Source: Ignavibacteriota bacterium (GTDB lineage Bacteria; Bacteroidota; Ignavibacteria; UBA10030; UBA6906). From it: a DNA stretch of 64,000 nt. The DNA lies in NCBI GenBank assembly GCA_963811705.1, contig CAWESL010000003.1:57448-121447 (forward strand). The letters run 5' to 3'. Made by a program: the position numbers. Shown here piece by piece: positions 3,001-18,000 of the stretch. The stretch's first letter is position 1, and every line of letters starts with the position of its first letter.

Positions 3001-6000
3001 AGGGATACGACAGGAAGTTCTCGAAGCCGGCGACGAGGAGGTCAAGGCAGTGGGTAGGCTGGCGGAATAGGTTGACAAACAGGAACGACACCTCGGGAGA
3101 ATGCGGACGAATCTTGGCAAGCACGGCCGACAGCACTTGATGGTCGCGTCCCACAATCACCGCAAGGGAGCCACGGGAAAGCTCTATAGGAGGGAAACCG
3201 TCAAGAGGCACATGGTGCAAGGTCGCAGAGCACCATTCCTCGCGCTCCAGCAGGGAGACCAATTCCGCTGCTGTCTCGAAGGAGCCGTCAACCGCCAAGA
3301 CATAGACACGAAGCGGCAGCATAGTGTCTTCCTGGGTGTATGTCAAAAAACGTTCGAAGAAGGCGTGATCCCTTCTTCGAAGGATATGCCGCGGACTTCA
3401 AGGTAGTCGTTGCTTCGTTACGAAGGGCACGAGACCTTGATTGCTCGCGCCCAATCCTTTCCTGAAACGGTCGCGTGCTGAGACAGCGTGAACCAATGGC
3501 TGGTTTCCGGCTCCCGGAGATGCAGGGATCCTCAATCCGTGCAGGATTGATAATTCTTTCTCGCAGTTGCAGCTCAATACTGCTCTATCACCGCGGACTC
3601 AGACAGCACATACCTCGCCGACAAGAAACGTCGGTCACCATTCTCCCCGCGCAGATTCGTCCTGACTGCAAGGGCAGCAGCTAAGGGTATCAGGTAAAAC
3701 ACAGATCGCTCGATTGCCTTTGTCGAACAGGCGTTGACAGACGCCACGCACGACAACGAGGGGGAAGAGACCAGAAATCATCGGTCCCTGAGGTCTCGTG
3801 CAGACGGAACTCGCAACCCGGGATGAAAGTACTCCACGGTCCTTCGACCTGCGAACTCTCGCGAAATATTAACAACTATAGAAACAAAAGTCAAGCTGAC
3901 GCATTGGGAAGACCCCCATTTCTACGATTGCTGGAATTCGTGAGAATTTCGTCTTGAACTCGTGCCGACCGGATGGACTTGGAAGTGGGTTAGCGAGGCA
4001 GTCAAACGTCAGGCATCAAAGGTGGGGAATCGCAGCGTGTGCTGGGCAACCAAATTGACCATGATTGGCCATTGTCACTCGTGTTTGCTTTGCGGGAAAA
4101 ACGTCTTCACGTATGCGGCAACATACCGGATCTCGTCCTTCTTCAGCGTCCACCCGTAAGGCGGCATCAAGGGAGACTTGTTGACACTCCGCCCACCCCC
4201 CATGATCGTTTCAACCGTCTGTTGATCCCCGAGGGCGTTCATGTACGTCGAATCAGTAAAATCCCTCGGCCGTGGATCGAGGTTGTAAGCGTTGAATCCA
4301 TCCCCTTTTCCTCCTTCCCCATGGCACACCATGCAGTACTCACGGTAAAGATATCTTCCCTGCCGTTGTTCATACGTCAGGACAACCTCGGGCTGAACGA
4401 CCGCAATCGTACTGGTCGAGTCGGCCCTGTGTAGACTGTCGCTTGCCGCTTCCGGCTTCGGAGGACCGGGATTCTTTGCTGAGCAACCGGCAAACAGGAT
4501 AAGGAGAACGAGTGATTTCTTTGCGCTCATTGTCGATCACCTGGTTAGGTCGGACTATTTCAAACTCATGAGGTAAGCCGTCAGAGCATCAGCGTCTGCG
4601 TCCGACAAGTTGTTATTGGGCTCAAGAGTCGCCGGCCTGAACGCTTGTGGGTCCTTCAGCCAATGGAACACCCAACCCGGTTTGAGCCGCGCGCTGACTT
4701 TATCGAGCGGCGGTCCGACGTACCCGCCGTTGCCGCCGATCTGATGACACGACTGGCATGCGTACCTCTCGTAATACAGCCCTTTCCCTCTCCCCACCGT
4801 AACAACATCGGAGGGCACTGTGCGATCGAGGCTGTCGGCGATAAACACCTTCTCCATGTAGTCAACGATCGTTTGTATCTCCTTGTCCCCGAGGAAGAGG
4901 TTGGGCATCCGCGCGGTGAGCGTGGGCCTGAGCGAGTATGGGACCTTGAAATAGCCCTCGATCCATTTCGATTGCGCCTGACTTGCCTCAAGACTCAGAT
5001 CCGTGGCGATCAGGTGCCCGCGCCCGTTCATCGTATGACATCCCAGACAGGCGAGATCATCCACGAGTTTTCCAAAGTCGCCCTGCGGCTCATACGTGCT
5101 TGGCGGCTGTGCATGCACAATGAACTCCTCCGGGATCCTCTCGCTTGTATTGCCGAGCAGTGCCACGGTAATTGCTTGTGCCTGTTCTGCGGTCAACTCG
5201 TAGCGGGGCATTCGCAGCCCCGCTGCAAACACGCGAGGATTCAGCAGCTTTGCGTCGAGATAGGCGGGGAGCGTCTGGTCAATGCCCGACGGCCCGAATT
5301 CTATCTCATAAATATTCTTGCTTCCGATCGTGTTCAAGTCCGGCCCCATTTCCTCTTCGCTTGGCGCGGCGGAGAGAATGTGGCACCCCTTACAATTGTA
5401 TTTGTTGAAGAGTGCGAGCCCCTTCTCGTAGTACGCCGGATCCGGCGTGTGCTGCGAGGCCGAGTCTTTGTCGAAGTCGACAAATTCGCTCTCCATATAG
5501 GCCACGAGGCTCACGAGCTGGTCCTCCGTGAACCGGAACCGCGGCATCCGGACACCGGGCAGAATCCGTTTGGGGTTCTTCACATAATTGTACAACCATT
5601 GTTCACTGACTTTGCTCGCTACTTTCCCCAGCTCTGTCGCCCCCTCCCCTCCTCTGCCATTCACCACATGACAGCTGATGCATCGGGCCTCCCGGAACAG
5701 GGTGGAGCCGAGATTGGCCAGCTTCGCCTTCTGCGCATCCGTCGACGAAACGAGCTGAGGAGGCAATGGCTCGAGCGTCGCACCTCCGGCCAGGGATTTG
5801 AAAGACAGAAGAAAATCCGCCAGAGTGTTCGCCTCGTCATCGGTAAGAAGAAAATTCGGCATCCGCGTCCCGGGGAAATAGCCTTTGGGATTTTTCAGCC
5901 AGCTCACCAACCAGGTTCGATCGACCATGGACCCGATGCCATCCAGTCCCGGCACCCACTGCTTCTGATACCCCTCAAGCTTATGGCATGCCATGCAGTT

Positions 6001-15000: not shown

Positions 15001-18000
15001 CGGGCGAAGATCCCGGAGTGTCCTTGACAAGACGACTTTTCTGGTCGATACACCAAGAGCCCTGACTCCTCCGGGGGGTTCGTCATTCTCAAGAGCCTGT
15101 ATGGCATTCAGCAGGATATTGACGATCGCCTCCTTGAAATGGGGTGTGCCGAGCATCATCGATGGGAGGTCGGGATCGAGGTCCGTTGTGAGCTCGATCT
15201 TCTGTTTCGCGATCGACGGTTGCAGCAGTGACAGGGCGTCAGCCACCACGTCGTTCACCGATTCGGCCCGAAACTCCATCGGGTTCGGGCGCGCAAAGGA
15301 CAGAAGCTCCTTCACAATGACTTCCATGCGGTAGATGGAGTCCAGAGCCACACCCAGCGATCTCCGGCTGGCGCGGCTGAGTTGTTTGGATTCACTGTGG
15401 AGTTGCAGGATCATCTTGATCGAAGTCAGAGAATTGCGGAACCCATGGGCAATAATGGCGGACATTTCCCCCGTCGCCATCAGTTTCTCGGACTGGATAA
15501 GGTTTTGTTCGAGTCGCGTCCTCTTGGTGATGTCCGTGATGACCTGCAGGAGAGAAGTCACTTCTCCATTTTTCCTGATGGGGACAGTGATGTGCTCAAG
15601 GTAACGCTCCCCTCCCATCCGGTCTGGCACGCGGTCAACATGGCTTTCGATCTTGTCGGGGATCCCGGCATCGGTGGACGGTGTGATCCGGCAGATGCCG
15701 CTGTCCCGCAACACGACACGCGCGTCTTTTCCGAGGACATCCTTCTGAAGCAGGCCGGTGATCGAAGCAAACGCTGCGCTTGCCATCTGGATCCGAAAGT
15801 CCTTGTCAAGGAGGACAAAGGCGCTCGCAACATTATCAAGAATCGCCTGCAGCTTCTCTTTCTGATCGAGCAATTCCCGCGTGCGATGCTCCACCATCTG
15901 CTGAAGATGGGTCCGGTGTTGCTGGATCTCTGCTTCGTGCGCTTCCAGTGAAGCCGCCATGGCATTGAACTGATTCGCCAGGTCCTCGATCTCATCGCCG
16001 GTCTGAATGCGGAGGCGTTCACCATAGTTCCCGCCGGAAAGTATCGCGGCTCCCCGACTCAGCGCGGAAATCGGGTGGGTGAATTGTCGCGTCGCCAAAA
16101 GACCGAGCACGATGGCGCCACCAAGGAAGAGGAGAAGGAACGCGAGAAACGTCAACGCAAAGGAGCGTGCGTCTCTCGTCACCGTCGCGCTCGGGACGCT
16201 CTCAAAAACGAAGAGGGACTCGGTGAATCCCCGGGTACCCTGTCCTTGATACTCTCCTCCGGTCGGGGGAAAGAGAGGAGTATGGACAATAATGTCGTCA
16301 GTCCCTTCAGTAATGGTCCCCTCTTCTTCCGACGTGATTGTGCGGGCGATTGCCGGACTATAGTCTTTCCGGAGCGTCCCCTCTTCCTGCGAGGCGACGA
16401 ATTTGTTCCATTGATTCCGCTCCTCTGAGTCATAAAGATAGTGACCATCGCCGGCAACGAGGACCACTTTCTCATCGATCCCGAGAATGCGGCCGGTTTG
16501 CATTTCCCGGAAAAGATTGCGCGCGAAGACATCGGCGATGAGGATGCCGATCCGCTTGCCCCCTCCGAATATCGGCATGGCAAACGTGATGACCGGAACA
16601 CGCGTCTGTCCCTGAAACACGAGTTCAGCCGGCGAAAATGCGATTTGCCCCGGGGAGAGATTCTGTGTCAGCAGGAAATAGAACGACTCACCACCCTGGC
16701 GGAGGGCGTTGGCGGGAAGTGCCCGCCACCGCAGAGCGGAATCGGGGATGCCGCTACACTGGATGCGGACAACTTCATCTCTGTCCTCGTTGACGATCCG
16801 GATTTGATAATAGATCTGCTTCGTTTGTGCAAATGCGACAAGCTCATTTTCCATCTGCCGGAGCAGGTCCTTCGGCGAACCCGTCGAAGCGCTTTCAGGG
16901 CTCTGGACAAAACGCTCGAACAGAAACGAACCGCGCAAGACGCGGAGATCACTTTCCACTCCCGCCATGAAGTTCCCCGTCCGCTCCCGGATGTTCTGGA
17001 CATCGTGCGTGAGGCTCTCCAACGCCACACGCTGCATCGTCTTCACATTCGAGTAGAGCCCATAGGTGCTGACAAAAACCGCCGGCAGGGCGGACAGACC
17101 TACAAATGCGATAACGAGCTTGCTCCTGATGGAGAGCCTGGGAAGCAAATGGCTTAGAGAGGTCAAAGGCGGATACGTCTTCTGTATTTTGTGGTGGAAC
17201 GGTTGAACGCCCCCGCACCGCAATAACACTGGTATTCCCGTCGTTGGTTCGAGCCTTTGAACCCTCAAAGCGGTTTTGTATTTCCTTGGATGTTGCCTAT
17301 ATTTCGGCTCCAACCATGACCTCCAAGACATCGAAAAGCGACCCGCATCGCGGGAAGGCAGGGCGTCCACTATCCTACCTCTCGACCCTCATGGTGGCCT
17401 CCCACGACCCGATTATCGGCATGACAAGCAACGGGACGGTCGTCAGCTGGAACCCCGCCGCGGAGAAGCTGTTCGGGTGGTCGGCCCGTGAGATCAAAGG
17501 AAGCTCGATTTCACGAATCATCGCACGCGGACATCACCGGGAGATTCAACGGATCCTGGAGCAGGTGCGCCAAGGCGAACATGTTCGCCAGTTCGAAACA
17601 GTCTTTGCAGGGAAAGACGACCGGCGTCTCAATGTCTCGTTAAACGTTTCTTCGCACACGAGCGAGAATGGCGCCCTGGCCGGCGTTGTGGCGGTGGTCA
17701 GGGACATCACCCGTCGCTTGCGAAGCAGAGAGGCCTTGATACGGCGAAACAGAGAATTGCTCACCTTTCACCGGCTCTCCCAGATCGTTCTTTCTTCCCG
17801 TTCGCTTCAGGAATCCTACCGCGATATCGTCGACGAGATTCGCGCGGCAACGGGGTTTCCGATTGCCGTCATCGCCATTGTTGATGAGGCACGCAAGTCG
17901 ATCGTTCTTCATGGTCTGACGAGACGCGGCGCAAAGACCGATCTCCTGTCCATGGAGTTCCCTGTCGAAAAGACACTCGCCGGGGTTGTCGTCCAAACCG

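Follow-up and report, generated by a model that had tools for sequence, protein, structure and literature searches.

Layout and conservation of the gene cluster

In the window, by which we mean the whole 64-kb stretch of Ignavibacteriota DNA analysed here, all twelve minus-strand ORFs predicted between positions 4075 and 17370 were found and are co-directional (every gene and regulatory element given below lies on the minus strand). Pfam and NCBIfam searches, together with the structure models and alignments given below, upheld the gene identities listed in the preliminary description. Among these are the flavoprotein subunit with its NAD(P), FAD and FeS domains, the Rieske/b complex of split b6 type and, from CxxCH counts and Pfam, the octahaem and monohaem cytochromes. 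Junction sequences revealed overlaps of 14 nt between the sensor kinase and NtrC-type activator genes and of 1 nt between the genes for subunit IV and the octahaem cytochrome, while gaps of 4-5 nt separate cytochrome b from subunit IV and the small membrane protein from the GltD-like gene. Start sites were corrected to ATG 13051 for the receiver gene and ATG 11255 for the cupredoxin gene; for the Rieske gene, GTG 8481, which has an AGGAG 6 nt upstream, is a more probable start than 8574, to which its ORF reaches, and the real start of the sensor kinase may lie downstream of 17370. Long plus-strand ORFs overlap the cluster (e.g. 4645-6504 and 11447-12631) and are most likely shadows of the supported minus-strand genes.

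The gene order is repeated in 10 of 10 Ignavibacteriota loci with protein identities of 53-95%, and the full cluster also occurs in one unclassified contig, giving 11 full loci that support the proposal of a single unit. The first genes of the cluster are kept in two short contigs that both come from one Calditrichota lineage, and the flanking genes are unrelated and differ between genomes. All carriers are uncultured metagenome-assembled genomes. We are highly confident of the identity of the parts and of their forming one unit. Some relatives encode the histidine kinase, the NtrC-type activator, Cyc2 and the cupredoxin without a Rieske/b module, and the coupling of the two is therefore optional.

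Regulatory genes and a putative sigma-54 promoter

The sensor histidine kinase (14698-17370) comprises dCache/HK_sensor, HAMP, PAS, HisKA and HATPase domains by Pfam, and its hydrophobic segments (residues 81-105 and 401-430) bracket about 300 aa that are predicted from hydropathy to be periplasmic; the gene holds its position in related loci. It is followed by an NtrC-type sigma-54 activator with REC, AAA+ Sigma54_activat and HTH_8 domains (13257-14711; Pfam, junction and synteny) and by a single-domain response-regulator receiver (12653-13051; Response_reg, E 2.9e-21), the first gene of the sigma-54-dependent operon, which is kept in all loci long enough to include its position.

About 30 nt upstream of the receiver start lies a -24/-12 promoter sequence, TGGCACGAAGGTTGG (13082-13096), and a TGGCAC-N5-TTGC or TTGG element occupies the equal position in 8 related loci. 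Further upstream, a putative enhancer-like upstream activating sequence (13177-13217) comprises two copies of a palindrome, a perfect one (TGCCAAG-N5-CTTGGCA, 13177-13195) and a degenerate one (13199-13217). In the 8 related loci, palindromes of the TGCCAA-N7-TTGGCA type, some with degenerate half-sites, precede the promoter by about 100-125 nt, and the sequence around them diverges. The positional conservation of both elements before the receiver gene agrees with the sigma-54 control proposed earlier, and we infer that the kinase and the NtrC-type activator would act on the enhancer palindrome and the -24/-12 promoter of the receiver-Cyc2 operon.

A Cyc2-family cytochrome-porin and its cupredoxin neighbour

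The 433-aa protein encoded at 11309-12610 has no match in Pfam or NCBIfam and contains a single CxxCH (residues 36-40). The defining signature of Cyc2, set for proteins of 365 aa or more, is AxPxFAR[Q/K][T/Y] followed by the only CxxCH and then by PxL; the motif of the window protein, SIPAFARKYKTSCATCHNGFPKL, fits it as PxFAR[K][Y]...CxxCH...PxL, and 197 of the 270 homologues retrieved carry the signature. The AlphaFold2 model (pLDDT 91.4) has 16 long strands and most closely resembles porins with 16 strands. OprP and OprO are among these matches and have also been named as the templates for the Cyc2 of Mariprofundus PV-1. By sequence and predicted structure the protein thus agrees with every published description of the family, and we assign it to Cyc2 as a fused monohaem cytochrome-porin. 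This bears out the earlier Cyc2-like call; neither a family mismatch nor a soluble periplasmic protein, the outcomes named as contrary to that call, was found at the sequence level. The barrel is 64-88% identical among 120 matches, unusually high for a porin.

The Cyc2 literature consulted reports Fe(II) oxidase activity for 3 of 3 family members tested biochemically, expressed Cyc2 of PV-1 among them, and proposes that monohaem Cyc2 handles dissolved iron only. Many homologues, above all in cluster 3, are termed uncertain in function. Survey text describes Ignavibacteriales with iron-oxidation genes at the DeMMO sites, where Cyc2 cluster 3 is dominant; if the window Cyc2 belongs to cluster 3, its function would be the least certain among the three clusters.

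The gene at 10650-11255 encodes a secreted type-1 copper cupredoxin of amicyanin-like type with a C-terminal CarboxypepD_reg-like beta-sandwich. Its match to Pfam Copper-bind is weak (E 2.5e-3), and the assignment made in the preliminary description gains its support from the ligand set H94, C132, H135 and M138, invariant in 46 homologues, and from a model (pLDDT 88.5) for which Foldseek returned amicyanin, pseudoazurin and plastocyanin. The cupredoxin gene is the constant neighbour directly downstream of Cyc2 across Cyc2 identities of 34-95%, including loci in which Cyc2 is as distant as 34-46%. The adjacent small protein (10381-10614; 77 aa, two hydrophobic segments by hydropathy) is confined to the closest relatives, being present in loci L001-L004 and absent from L005-L009 and L012.

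A Rieske/cytochrome b6 complex with a predicted flavoprotein subunit

Pfam and NCBIfam place the 628-aa product of 8490-10376 among the FAD/NAD(P)-binding iron-sulfur flavoproteins of GltD/NfnB-like type, with an N-terminal Fer4_20, a Pyr_redox_2 and a C-terminal Fer4_7 (2x[4Fe-4S] ferredoxin) domain. In GltD, NfnB and DPD the Fer4_20 domain binds two [4Fe-4S] clusters. The closest solved relatives contain NfnB-type NADPH/FAD modules, and we read the protein as an NAD(P) oxidoreductase with FAD and four Fe-S clusters. Hydropathy detected no hydrophobic segment in the flavoprotein and, as it lacks a membrane segment, it presumably resides at the cytoplasmic face.

The Rieske [2Fe-2S] protein (7975-8481; Pfam) has a twin-arginine signal, SRRHFL, and the boxes CTHLGC and CPCHGSKF; its best solved homologues are Kuste4569 (9rk4, 47.5% identity) and Kustd1480 (9rk3, 43%), both from Kuenenia, and the CPCHGS-x-F box is common to the window protein and Kustd1480. 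The four-helix cytochrome b6 (7202-7912) matches Pfam, and its NCBIfam ExtP score of 275.5 bits lies below the cutoff of 290. Both bis-His sites for haem b are preserved. Alignment to b6 placed Gly58 opposite Cys35, and the window protein lacks the Cys that would bind haem cn. The subunit-IV-like membrane protein (6498-7196; Pfam Cytochrom_B_C) carries the Qo motif APWY, and KAPWYF is shared by the window and all related loci long enough to include the subunit IV gene. An APWY clade has been described and proposed to run in reverse (PMC4122944).

Eight CxxCH motifs, Pfam, NCBIfam and hydropathy define a membrane-anchored octahaem cytochrome c (4555-6498) in which an N-terminal anchor helix is followed by four closely spaced haems and by class-I cytochrome c domains; we place this cytochrome at the outer face of the Rieske/b6/subunit IV complex. 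The last gene (4075-4530; Pfam Cytochrome_CBB3), which ends the cluster in all loci extending to it, encodes a monohaem class-I cytochrome c lipoprotein with one CxxCH and the lipobox LFAGC. Inspection of CxxCH motifs and Pfam matches found no multihaem outer-membrane or extracellular cytochrome in the cluster, and domain scans found no terminal oxidase or carbon-fixation genes within the 64-kb window.

Relation to known electron-transfer systems

The succession of flavoprotein, Rieske protein, b6, subunit IV and octahaem cytochrome is the architecture of the two Rieske/cytochrome b complexes of Kuenenia stuttgartiensis with an embedded GltD-like NAD(P) oxidoreductase subunit, Kuste4569-4574 and Kustd1480-1485 (PMC12954380). 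For these anammox complexes, whose Rieske potentials exceed +300 mV and whose clusters also encode a high-potential sink enzyme, quinol oxidation is proposed to be bifurcated to a high-potential acceptor and NAD(P)+ (PMC12954380). The novelty claimed for the locus therefore stands in part: a bc complex with a GltD-like subunit is known from anammox bacteria, whereas we found no description in the literature of Cyc2, a cupredoxin and an NAD(P)-linked Rieske/b complex in combination. The b6 and subunit IV proteins score best against Geobacter ExtP and ExtQ, which belong to the extHIJKLMNOPQS cluster of an iron reducer and adjoin a phosphate-porin-like outer-membrane protein.

The parallel drawn to the Acidithiobacillus Fe(II)-oxidation pathway reduces to functional analogy without homology. 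The window cupredoxin is amicyanin/pseudoazurin-like by best fold match, in contrast to rusticyanin; the window complex is of the split b6 type with an APWY Qo motif, in contrast to PetABC bc1; and the literature describes SdrA as an accessory protein of the NADH complex, whereas the window subunit is a GltD/NfnB-type flavoprotein. The locus joins Cyc2 and a copper protein to a respiratory complex hitherto discussed in anammox bacteria only, and the operon offers, in uncultured Ignavibacteriota, a concrete and testable genetic route that would link extracellular iron with the quinone pool and with NAD(P)H.

Direction of electron flow

We regard the cluster as a self-contained, sigma-54-controlled electron-transfer module between the outer membrane and both the inner-membrane quinone pool and cytoplasmic NAD(P). 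The direction that we consider the most likely, though at slightly less than even odds, is regulated uptake, by which the menaquinone and NAD(P) system would gain electrons from dissolved Fe(II). The Cyc2 haem would oxidise dissolved Fe(II) and hand the electron to the cupredoxin and the monohaem cytochrome c, from which it would reach the octahaem subunit and finally the Rieske cluster. The complex would work backwards at its APWY Qo site, where menaquinone would be reduced jointly by a high-potential electron supplied by Rieske and a low-potential one; the latter would come from NAD(P)H via the flavoprotein and then the b haems, and the proton-motive force would help the reaction. Extracellular electrons otherwise limited to a terminal oxidase would thereby enter the quinol pool and, if so, could feed e.g. 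quinol-dependent anaerobic respiration. The earlier notion of a complete conduit to both quinone and NAD(P) was overstated, as it presupposes the direction of flow and Qo-site chemistry speaks against a simple relay: an electron on the high-potential side cannot simply pass on to NAD(P), and NAD(P)H would be either a co-donor in reverse mode or a product of quinol oxidation in forward mode. The same hardware, near equilibrium, could also work forward, with quinol supplying electrons to the cytochrome c/copper pool and yielding NAD(P)H.

Such a forward mode underlies a rather unlikely reading in which menaquinol is oxidised at Qo and its electrons are split, one branch running outward from Rieske through octahaem and cytochrome c/cupredoxin to Cyc2 as terminal reductase of a dissolved oxidant (e.g. 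chelated Fe(III) or Mn(III)), the other from the b haems through the Fe-S chain and FAD to NAD(P)+. The operon would then hold a complete chain from quinol to the outside with no need of an oxidase, and according to survey papers the Ignavibacteria in culture are heterotrophs and reduce iron; the ExtP/ExtQ matches, from an iron reducer with a porin-like neighbour, point the same way. Bifurcation is moreover the mechanism proposed for the closest known complexes, whose clusters likewise encode the sink enzyme, and box II of the Rieske protein is similar to its counterpart in the high-potential Kuenenia proteins. The published direction of the anammox homologues, together with the box shared with Kustd1480, weighs against Fe(II) uptake, and by rough bookkeeping a reverse mode that spends NAD(P)H for quinol looks unattractive for a heterotroph, in which complex I could oxidise NADH. 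Also counting against uptake are the lifestyle described for cultured Ignavibacteria, the optional coupling of Cyc2 to the Rieske/b module, the uncertain function of cluster 3 should the window Cyc2 fall there, and the lack of terminal oxidase and carbon-fixation genes in the window. Against outward flow, known conduits use multihaem cytochromes and the cluster has none on the outer-membrane side. Dissolved Fe(III), moreover, is scarce at neutral pH. The Cyc2 literature consulted contains no family member shown as a reductase, all those tested being Fe(II) oxidases, and the proposed restriction of monohaem Cyc2 to dissolved iron and the reverse direction proposed for the APWY clade (PMC4122944) likewise argue against the outward reading.

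The two halves might instead share a periplasmic pool, Cyc2 importing electrons from Fe(II) and the Rieske/b6 complex running forward, possibly with NAD(P)H formation, onto common cupredoxin and cytochrome c carriers whose sharing would account for co-regulation; the sink, e.g. a cbb3/caa3 oxidase or copper/haem denitrification enzymes, would be encoded elsewhere. The loci that keep Cyc2, cupredoxin and regulators without a Rieske/b module favour this arrangement and imply that both halves can work apart. The fold matches of the cupredoxin fit as well, since amicyanin/pseudoazurin-type cupredoxins are donors to periplasmic reductases, as does the published forward direction of the anammox homologues. 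We nevertheless consider a shared pool distinctly unlikely, for neither the 64-kb window nor the regions flanking five related loci yielded an oxidase or reductase gene, and strict adjacency and translational coupling over 11 full loci exceed what shared carriers need. Very improbable, finally, is that Cyc2 of this clade has no role with iron, handling another dissolved redox substrate or serving as a haem-bearing porin in sensing or structure, with the rest an ordinary respiratory bc-type complex and accessory genes. The uncertain function of many homologues, notably in cluster 3, and the high barrel identity, a hint that more than simple pore function constrains the protein, would suit such a role, but the cytochrome signature is conserved to the residue level, Cyc2 is always paired with a redox-active copper protein and sigma-54 regulators, and Pfam and NCBIfam revealed no alternative substrate-binding domain.

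In another organism, a second Cyc2 paralogue adjoins a different quinone-interacting module, of the 4Fe-4S/NrfD type, an arrangement that speaks for wiring between Cyc2 and quinones.

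Gene content and layout of the cluster

The preliminary description had placed twelve co-directional genes on the minus strand between window positions 4075 and 17370, and ORFs and profile searches bore this out with small corrections. In transcription order, the cluster opens with a sensor kinase (dCache/HK_sensor, HAMP, PAS, HisKA and HATPase domains), in which hydropathy reveals a stretch of ~300 residues between two hydrophobic segments that would be periplasmic, followed by an NtrC-type activator (REC, Sigma54_activat, HTH_8) and a single-domain receiver. The next three genes encode a 433-aa protein with a single CxxCH and no Pfam or NCBIfam match, a 201-aa secreted protein with a CarboxypepD_reg domain and a weak Copper-bind match, and a small protein of 77 aa with two hydrophobic segments. 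A soluble 628-aa flavoprotein (Fer4_20, Pyr_redox_2/NAD_binding_8, Fer4_7) lies directly upstream of a Rieske gene whose product bears a twin-arginine motif, and the genes that follow encode a four-helix cytochrome b6 of 236 aa with both His pairs present (Pfam Cytochrome_B), a subunit-IV-like protein of 232 aa from a separate gene (Pfam Cytochrom_B_C), a 647-aa octahaem cytochrome c with eight CxxCH motifs and an N-terminal membrane helix and, last in the series, a monohaem class-I cytochrome c with a lipobox.

Neighbouring genes lie close together or overlap. An overlap of 14 nt joins kinase and activator, and one of 1 nt the subunit IV stop and the octahaem gene, while gaps of 4-5 nt separate cytochrome b from subunit IV and the small membrane protein from the flavoprotein. 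The Rieske gene most likely starts at the GTG at 8481, which has AGGAG ahead of it, rather than at the first start codon of the ORF.

A predicted Cyc2-family cytochrome-porin and its cupredoxin neighbour

The published criteria for Cyc2 comprise a signal peptide, a single CxxCH with AxPxFAR[Q/K][T/Y] upstream and PxL downstream (Keffer et al. 2021, PMC8406198), as well as a length of at least 365 aa and a 16-strand porin like OprO or OprP; the motif just upstream of CxxCH is called unique to Cyc2 (PMC8406198). The 433-aa protein, which had been described as a Cyc2-like outer-membrane barrel, agrees with all of these sequence and structure criteria examined, and from its sequence and structural model we assign it to the Cyc2-family cytochrome-porins, with a putative role as an Fe(II) oxidase. 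By hydropathy, residues 1-28 are hydrophobic and the mature motif comes next, and in the AlphaFold2 model the N-terminus forms a helix (residues 2-17) and a low-confidence linker (21-24). The only CxxCH is CATCH at residues 36-40, and the upstream motif reads S-I-P-A-F-A-R-K-Y at residues 24-32 (sequence around the haem motif: SIPAFARKYKTSCATCHNGFPKL). Its first position is Ser versus Ala in most homologues, and the form used for screening by Keffer et al., PxFAR[QK][TY], is present (PMC8406198). Downstream, the sequence CATCH-NGF-PKL puts PxL four residues from CxxCH, with P44 and L46 nearly invariant in an alignment of 130 homologues. Of the 270 homologues retrieved, 197 have CxxCH, PxFAR[QK][TY] and PxL together and 220 have the upstream motif; the whole homologue family (E up to 0.001) falls into 1962 clusters when grouped at 50% identity. 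An exact look-up of the protein itself returned no contig that encodes it.

The AlphaFold2 model, built with the 130 homologues (pLDDT 91.4, pTM 0.86), has 16 long strands between residues 100 and 432. When this model was compared with solved structures by Foldseek, the best matches were 16-strand porins including OprP (2o4v) and OprO (4rjw), whose query-normalised TM scores of 0.55 and 0.54 are the highest among the matches listed. At the sequence level, comparison of the protein with those of solved structures gave chance matches only.

With Cyc2 of Acidithiobacillus ferrooxidans, Cyc2 of Mariprofundus ferrooxydans PV-1 and Cyt572 of Leptospirillum, the window protein shares the signal peptide, the single N-terminal CxxCH, PxFAR[K][Y], PxL, a length of ~430 aa and the 16-strand OprO/OprP-like barrel. 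It differs from known Cyc2s in its Ignavibacteriota origin, in the very strong conservation of its close relatives and in its partners, a cupredoxin-CarboxypepD_reg fusion, sigma-54 regulators and an NAD(P)-linked Rieske/b6 complex, which we did not find reported for known iron oxidisers in the open-access literature. Within the clade of the window protein the barrel is 64-88% identical among the 120 best metagenomic matches, which is unusually high for a porin; in the Cyc2 literature the porin domain is said to be poorly conserved (PMC8406198). FeGenie surveys already report cyc2 matches in Ignavibacteriales, and the site-level survey text for DeMMO sites with Ignavibacteriales iron-oxidation genes, which concerns the sites and not the window protein, names Cyc2 cluster 3 as dominant.

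The 201-aa protein encoded next to Cyc2 is a predicted type-1 copper cupredoxin, judging by its fold and its His...Cys-x2-His-x2-Met residues. Its Copper-bind (Pfam) score of 18.7 falls below the gathering cutoff of 21.2 and would not by itself pass the threshold. None of H94, C132, H135 and M138 varies in an alignment of 46 homologues, and their C-x2-H-x2-M ligand loop is the amicyanin pattern; these four putative ligands are also kept in orthologues beside very divergent Cyc2 genes. The structural model (pLDDT 88.5) retrieved amicyanin, pseudoazurin and plastocyanin at a Foldseek probability of 1.0 and a TM score of ~0.7 on the target, and further cupredoxins at the same probability, while many homologues are annotated by JGI as plastocyanin. 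The C-terminal third of the protein forms a CarboxypepD_reg-like beta-sandwich. Rusticyanin was considered as an identity for this copper protein and rejected, the best fold matches being amicyanin and pseudoazurin.

The Rieske/b module resembles NAD(P)-linked complexes of anammox bacteria

Among solved structures, the window Rieske protein is closest to 9rk4, which is Kuste4569 (E 7.6e-27; 48/101 identical, 47.5%, over the soluble domain), and next to 9rk3, which is Kustd1480 (E 2.6e-23; 43/99 identical, 43%, over the soluble domain), and both outrank every b6f and bc1 Rieske protein. These two proteins belong to Rieske/cytochrome b complexes of Kuenenia stuttgartiensis (Kuste4569-4574 and Kustd1480-1485), in which they are joined by a b6-like cytochrome and a subunit IV, by a cytochrome c that is hexa- or octahaem, and by a putative NAD(P) oxidoreductase, cytoplasmic and equipped with a chain of Fe-S clusters (PMC12954380). 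The window module has the same Rieske lineage, as defined by the closest solved homologues, a four-helix b6-type cytochrome (with cytochromes b6 as best solved relatives) and a separate subunit IV, a multihaem (here octahaem) cytochrome c replacing cytochrome f or c1, and, within the gene cluster, an FAD/NAD(P) subunit with about four Fe-S clusters. For the flavoprotein (with Kuste4570 and Kustd1483 as counterparts), for b6 and for the octahaem protein, the resemblance to the Kuenenia subunits is one of described architecture. Homologues of the flavoprotein among the matches listed are all at least 74% identical and none is from an anammox bacterium, and its best solved relatives hold NfnB-type NADPH/FAD modules.

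The module departs from the Kuenenia complexes in several respects. Gly58 of the window cytochrome b6 (7202-7912, minus strand) aligns with Cys35 of b6f, the covalent ligand of haem cn, so that this cytochrome b6 probably carries no covalent negative-side haem, whereas the published Kuenenia models include covalent haem cn. Moreover, the window cluster has no HAO-like octahaem enzyme, its host is a member of the FCB group that is not an anammox bacterium, its partners are Cyc2, the cupredoxin and a monohaem cytochrome c, and its regulation is of the sigma-54 two-component type. We conclude that the Rieske/b module either belongs to a known but biochemically unproven anammox kind or is closely related to it as a variant without haem cn. 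Its subunits may form one physical complex coupling quinol and NAD(P), a function that is biochemically unproven even in Kuenenia.

The Qo motif of subunit IV is APWY, in the window and in every orthologous cluster that reaches this gene. Kao and Hunte described an APWY clade spanning delta-proteobacteria, Planctomycetes, Nitrospirales and others, and for this clade it was proposed that electrons from high-potential donors reduce menaquinone via a reversed Q cycle (PMC4122944). The window module shares the split cytochrome b and APWY with such complexes, for example the p-cresol methylhydroxylase-associated one of Geobacter metallireducens, and is placed with them by this motif; none of the APWY-clade complexes has itself been characterised. 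The names given by JGI to the flavoprotein, glutamate synthase or formate dehydrogenase beta subunit, were rejected, as no gene for a catalytic partner is present and the Rieske/b genes are the constant neighbours of the flavoprotein gene.

Conservation of the cluster as a unit

A genome scan with one genome per species and exact-peptide seeding, from which distant copies in cultured Ignavibacterium or Melioribacter may escape, returned ten loci, all in uncultured genomes that stem from Danish environmental samples or Stordalen fen; nine carry the label Ignavibacteriota or Ignavibacteriae, and the tenth is named 'uncultured Bacteroidetes'. The order kinase, activator, receiver, Cyc2, cupredoxin, small membrane protein, flavoprotein, Rieske, b6, subunit IV, octahaem and monohaem cytochrome is kept in 10/10 loci as far as the contigs reach, at protein identities of 53-95%, with the small membrane protein confined to the closest relatives. 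At 46% Cyc2 identity, Cyc2, cupredoxin, flavoprotein, Rieske and cytochrome b are found, as far as the sequence reaches, on two short contigs that carry one identical Calditrichota Cyc2 protein. At 43% the full order recurs on an unclassified contig, where another gene product has a type-9 secretion sorting domain. Two loci at 41% and 34% Cyc2 identity hold kinase, activator, Cyc2 and cupredoxin without the Rieske/b module, and in one further relative Cyc2 stands alone. Since Cyc2-cupredoxin loci occur without Rieske/b genes, the conserved core consists of the regulators, Cyc2 and the cupredoxin, to which the NAD(P)-linked Rieske/b complex is a frequently attached module with a fixed gene order. 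The flanks are unrelated between genomes (aminotransferase, amidohydrolase, Tc-toxin-like protein, tricorn protease, secretion cargo protein), those in the window encoding a PAS-GAF kinase, ABC transporters and another sigma-54 activator. The cluster is a real, conserved and self-contained feature.

An unclassified organism has two adjacent Cyc2 paralogues, seen on two contigs (L012, 2400-3725 and 4357-5676; L013, 7866-9191 and 9823-11142). One of them comes after a 4Fe-4S/NrfD module (alternative-complex-III-like or Psr-like), a 206-aa protein and a cytochrome c, and the other heads a cupredoxin-flavoprotein-Rieske/b cluster, and thus both copies are paired with a quinone-interacting membrane module. 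A distant relative (L011, 6307-11875) encodes a kinase, a sigma-54 activator, Porin_O_P, a separate Cupredoxin_1, a cytochrome c, a Phenol_MetA_deg outer-membrane channel, Cyc2 and a cupredoxin-CarboxypepD_reg protein, and has no Rieske/b module. The MAG MFD01872.bin.1.283 contains two 95%-identical copies of the cluster on contigs L001 and L003; tblastn located frame breaks in the kinase, activator, flavoprotein, cytochrome b, subunit IV and octahaem genes of L001, which could stem from indel errors of long reads or from mixed strains, or could mark a duplicate in decay. In one Ignavibacteriota genome (L002, 30-4691), a gene for a Tc-toxin TcA-like protein (ABC_toxin_N, Neuraminidase-like, TcA_TcB_BD) is found upstream of the cluster.

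Sigma-54 promoter and upstream palindrome

A scan with the sigma-54 consensus located a -24/-12 element, TGGCACGAAGGTTGG, ~30 nt upstream of the receiver gene. The element is found at the same position in eight related loci, with the canonical TTGC in more distant ones. The consensus is not enriched across the window (6 matches versus 4.5 expected), and hence it is the conserved position in related loci that constitutes the evidence for this element. At ~100-125 nt upstream of the sigma-54 promoter (window 13177-13217, minus strand) there is a palindrome, TGCCAA-N7-TTGGCA, which also occurs upstream of the receiver gene in eight related loci (L001-L005, L007, L009 and L010), in most cases as a tandem pair in which a copy may be degenerate, and conserved amid diverging sequence. 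On this sequence evidence the palindrome is a probable binding site of the NtrC-type activator, and its layout with the promoter is as expected for an operon driven by an enhancer-binding protein. As the promoter is located in front of the receiver, the kinase and activator genes lie upstream of it; the receiver, Cyc2 and the remaining genes lie downstream and are presumably transcribed together as a predicted single transcript. No Rfam match was found within the window.

Comparison with other electron-transfer gene clusters

The extHIJKLMNOPQS cluster of Geobacter sulfurreducens, a selenite/tellurite reduction operon, encodes a Rieske protein (ExtO), a cytochrome b (ExtP), a membrane protein (ExtQ), a lipoprotein cytochrome c (ExtS) and a phosphate-porin-like outer-membrane protein. 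Among NCBIfam models, the window b6 protein matches ExtP best (275.5 versus a cutoff of 290) and subunit IV matches ExtQ best (55.9 versus 150), both below the cutoffs, and the Rieske protein gave no match to ExtO. The octahaem protein also matches ExtS, with a score of 102.4 versus a cutoff of 100 that is summed over four repeated cytochrome c stretches of its 647 aa, whereas ExtS is a lipoprotein of roughly 260 aa. ORFs and profile searches revealed no rhodanese, selenocysteine cytochrome or 10- or 12-haem cytochrome in the window cluster, which has no equivalents of ExtH, ExtKL, ExtM and ExtN; ExtI is not described as haem-bearing, nor is a flavoprotein or cupredoxin described for the Geobacter cluster. 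With ExtP and ExtQ below their cutoffs and the Ext partners absent, membership of the Geobacter Ext group was rejected. An MtrAB/PioAB-type porin-cytochrome conduit was likewise rejected, the decahaem partner being absent and the barrel having 16 strands.

A parallel had been drawn with the Fe(II)-oxidation pathway of Acidithiobacillus, and as a functional analogy it stands: the rus and petI operons of A. ferrooxidans follow a common logic, in which Cyc2 in the outer membrane and a blue copper protein in the periplasm are combined with c-type cytochromes and with a bc-type complex considered to run in reverse towards NAD(P)H. It does not extend to homology, as A. ferrooxidans has two operons, a canonical bc1 PetABC with a PPWY Qo motif (PMC4122944), rusticyanin, and SdrA instead of a GltD/NfnB flavoprotein. 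It is also an acidophile, with a large pH gradient driving the uphill flow.

Direction of electron flow

The cluster encodes the parts of a route that would link a haem in the outer membrane, by way of a copper protein and c-type cytochromes in the periplasm, to a Rieske/b6 complex in contact with the quinone pool and, through the flavoprotein, with NAD(P). The preliminary description had read this as a complete conduit from an extracellular donor to both pools; the parts for a path from the outer membrane to quinone and NAD(P) are indeed encoded, and the direction in which it runs is what we infer. The parts are identified with high confidence, the direction and the physiological role tentatively.

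We tentatively lean, at slightly less than an even chance, towards inward uptake of electrons from dissolved Fe(II). The three members of the Cyc2 family that have been tested are all Fe(II) oxidases (PMC8406198), which counts for uptake, and the reverse-mode proposal for APWY complexes (PMC4122944) favours the same direction. So does the lack in the cluster of the multihaem outer-membrane cytochromes typical of outward conduits, as does the second Cyc2 paralogue that lies, in another organism, beside a different quinone-interacting module. During uptake, a high-potential electron from the Rieske protein and a low-potential electron would combine at the Qo site to reduce menaquinone; the low-potential electron would come from NAD(P)H via the Fe-S chain and then the b haems, and proton-motive force would help the reduction. 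Outward flow, as a bifurcating respiration through Cyc2, is in our judgement unlikely, although the published proposal for the anammox homologues is quinol bifurcation to a high-potential sink and to NAD(P)+, backed by Kuenenia Rieske potentials of >+300 mV (PMC12954380). The CPCHGS-x-F box common to the window Rieske protein and Kustd1480 also speaks for the outward direction, and by our rough energy bookkeeping NAD(P)H spent for quinol would be a poor bargain for a heterotroph. We give still less credence to a shared periplasmic carrier pool whose sink lies elsewhere, and a role other than with iron seems very improbable. No neighbouring gene for an oxidase or for carbon fixation, from which a direction of flow would follow, lies in the window or in the flanks of five related loci.

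The potentials quoted for the components are near -70 mV for menaquinone, -320 mV for NAD(P) and near +300 mV for Rieske proteins (PMC8406198, PMC12954380), and +208 mV for Cyc2 of PV-1 (PMC8406198). On these values the reaction is close to equilibrium, and therefore redox poise and membrane potential could set its direction. It is conceivable, if doubtful, that the cluster is a quinone-based bifurcating/confurcating machine with its high-potential arm through the outer membrane. In the forward mode, a dissolved extracellular oxidant reduced by Cyc2 would pull electrons and thereby drive them from menaquinol to NAD(P)+, and in the reverse mode NAD(P)H and proton-motive force would push electrons from Fe(II) at neutral pH into the menaquinone pool.

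An apparently new combination of two known kinds

The conserved operon is carried by Ignavibacteriota and Calditrichota and is built from two known kinds. It had been suggested that the combination with an embedded GltD-like subunit was undescribed as a unit. The Kuenenia complexes mean that a bc-type complex with such an embedded subunit has already been described, but the whole combination does appear to be new: the open-access literature yielded no description of a conserved operon that joins Cyc2 to an NAD(P)-linked Rieske/b complex and adds a cupredoxin of its own under sigma-54 control, and there the NAD(P)-linked Rieske/b kind is discussed for anammox bacteria only.

How electrons from Cyc2 reach the quinone pool and NAD(P)H in neutrophilic iron oxidisers and electron-uptake organisms is an open question, and here candidate parts for such a route are encoded together as a conserved unit. 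If the cluster functions as proposed, it would provide a new answer to how Cyc2 is linked with the quinone and pyridine-nucleotide pools in neutrophiles. In either mode it would also be the first case beyond the anammox bacteria of an NAD(P)-linked Rieske/b complex whose physiological partner can be identified. The function of the putatively NAD(P)H-generating Rieske/b complexes of anammox bacteria is unconfirmed and their hosts are hard to manipulate; a homologous complex with clear partners and a regulator in Ignavibacteriota widespread in soil, peat and aquifers would offer a comparative and possibly more tractable context. Surveys of iron genes score cyc2 of Ignavibacteriales simply as 'iron oxidation', and its context suggests a more complex, possibly bidirectional role.

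Neighbouring genes and other features of the window

Just downstream of the cluster lies a gene for a second sigma-54 activator, which has no receiver domain (1907-3346, minus strand). The spacer of ~730 bp between the two (3347-4074) contains no ORF of >70 aa and no Rfam match, and a hairpin followed by a T-run is located at 3353-3381. On the other side, divergent from the cluster, the plus strand encodes a PAS-GAF histidine kinase (HisKA_3) together with a LuxR-type response regulator (17244-19549). Next come genes for a receiver protein and for a MacB-type efflux system; none of these is conserved beside the cluster elsewhere.

Farther away, a 3089-aa protein (33201-42470, minus strand) combines Glycoamylase and GH94 (supersandwich and catalytic) domains, an arrangement that presumably recalls cyclic beta-1,2-glucan synthase. 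A member of the bacterial archaeo-eukaryotic release factor family 10 (eRF1-like), encoded at 28696-29784 (minus strand), adjoins a TerC membrane protein.
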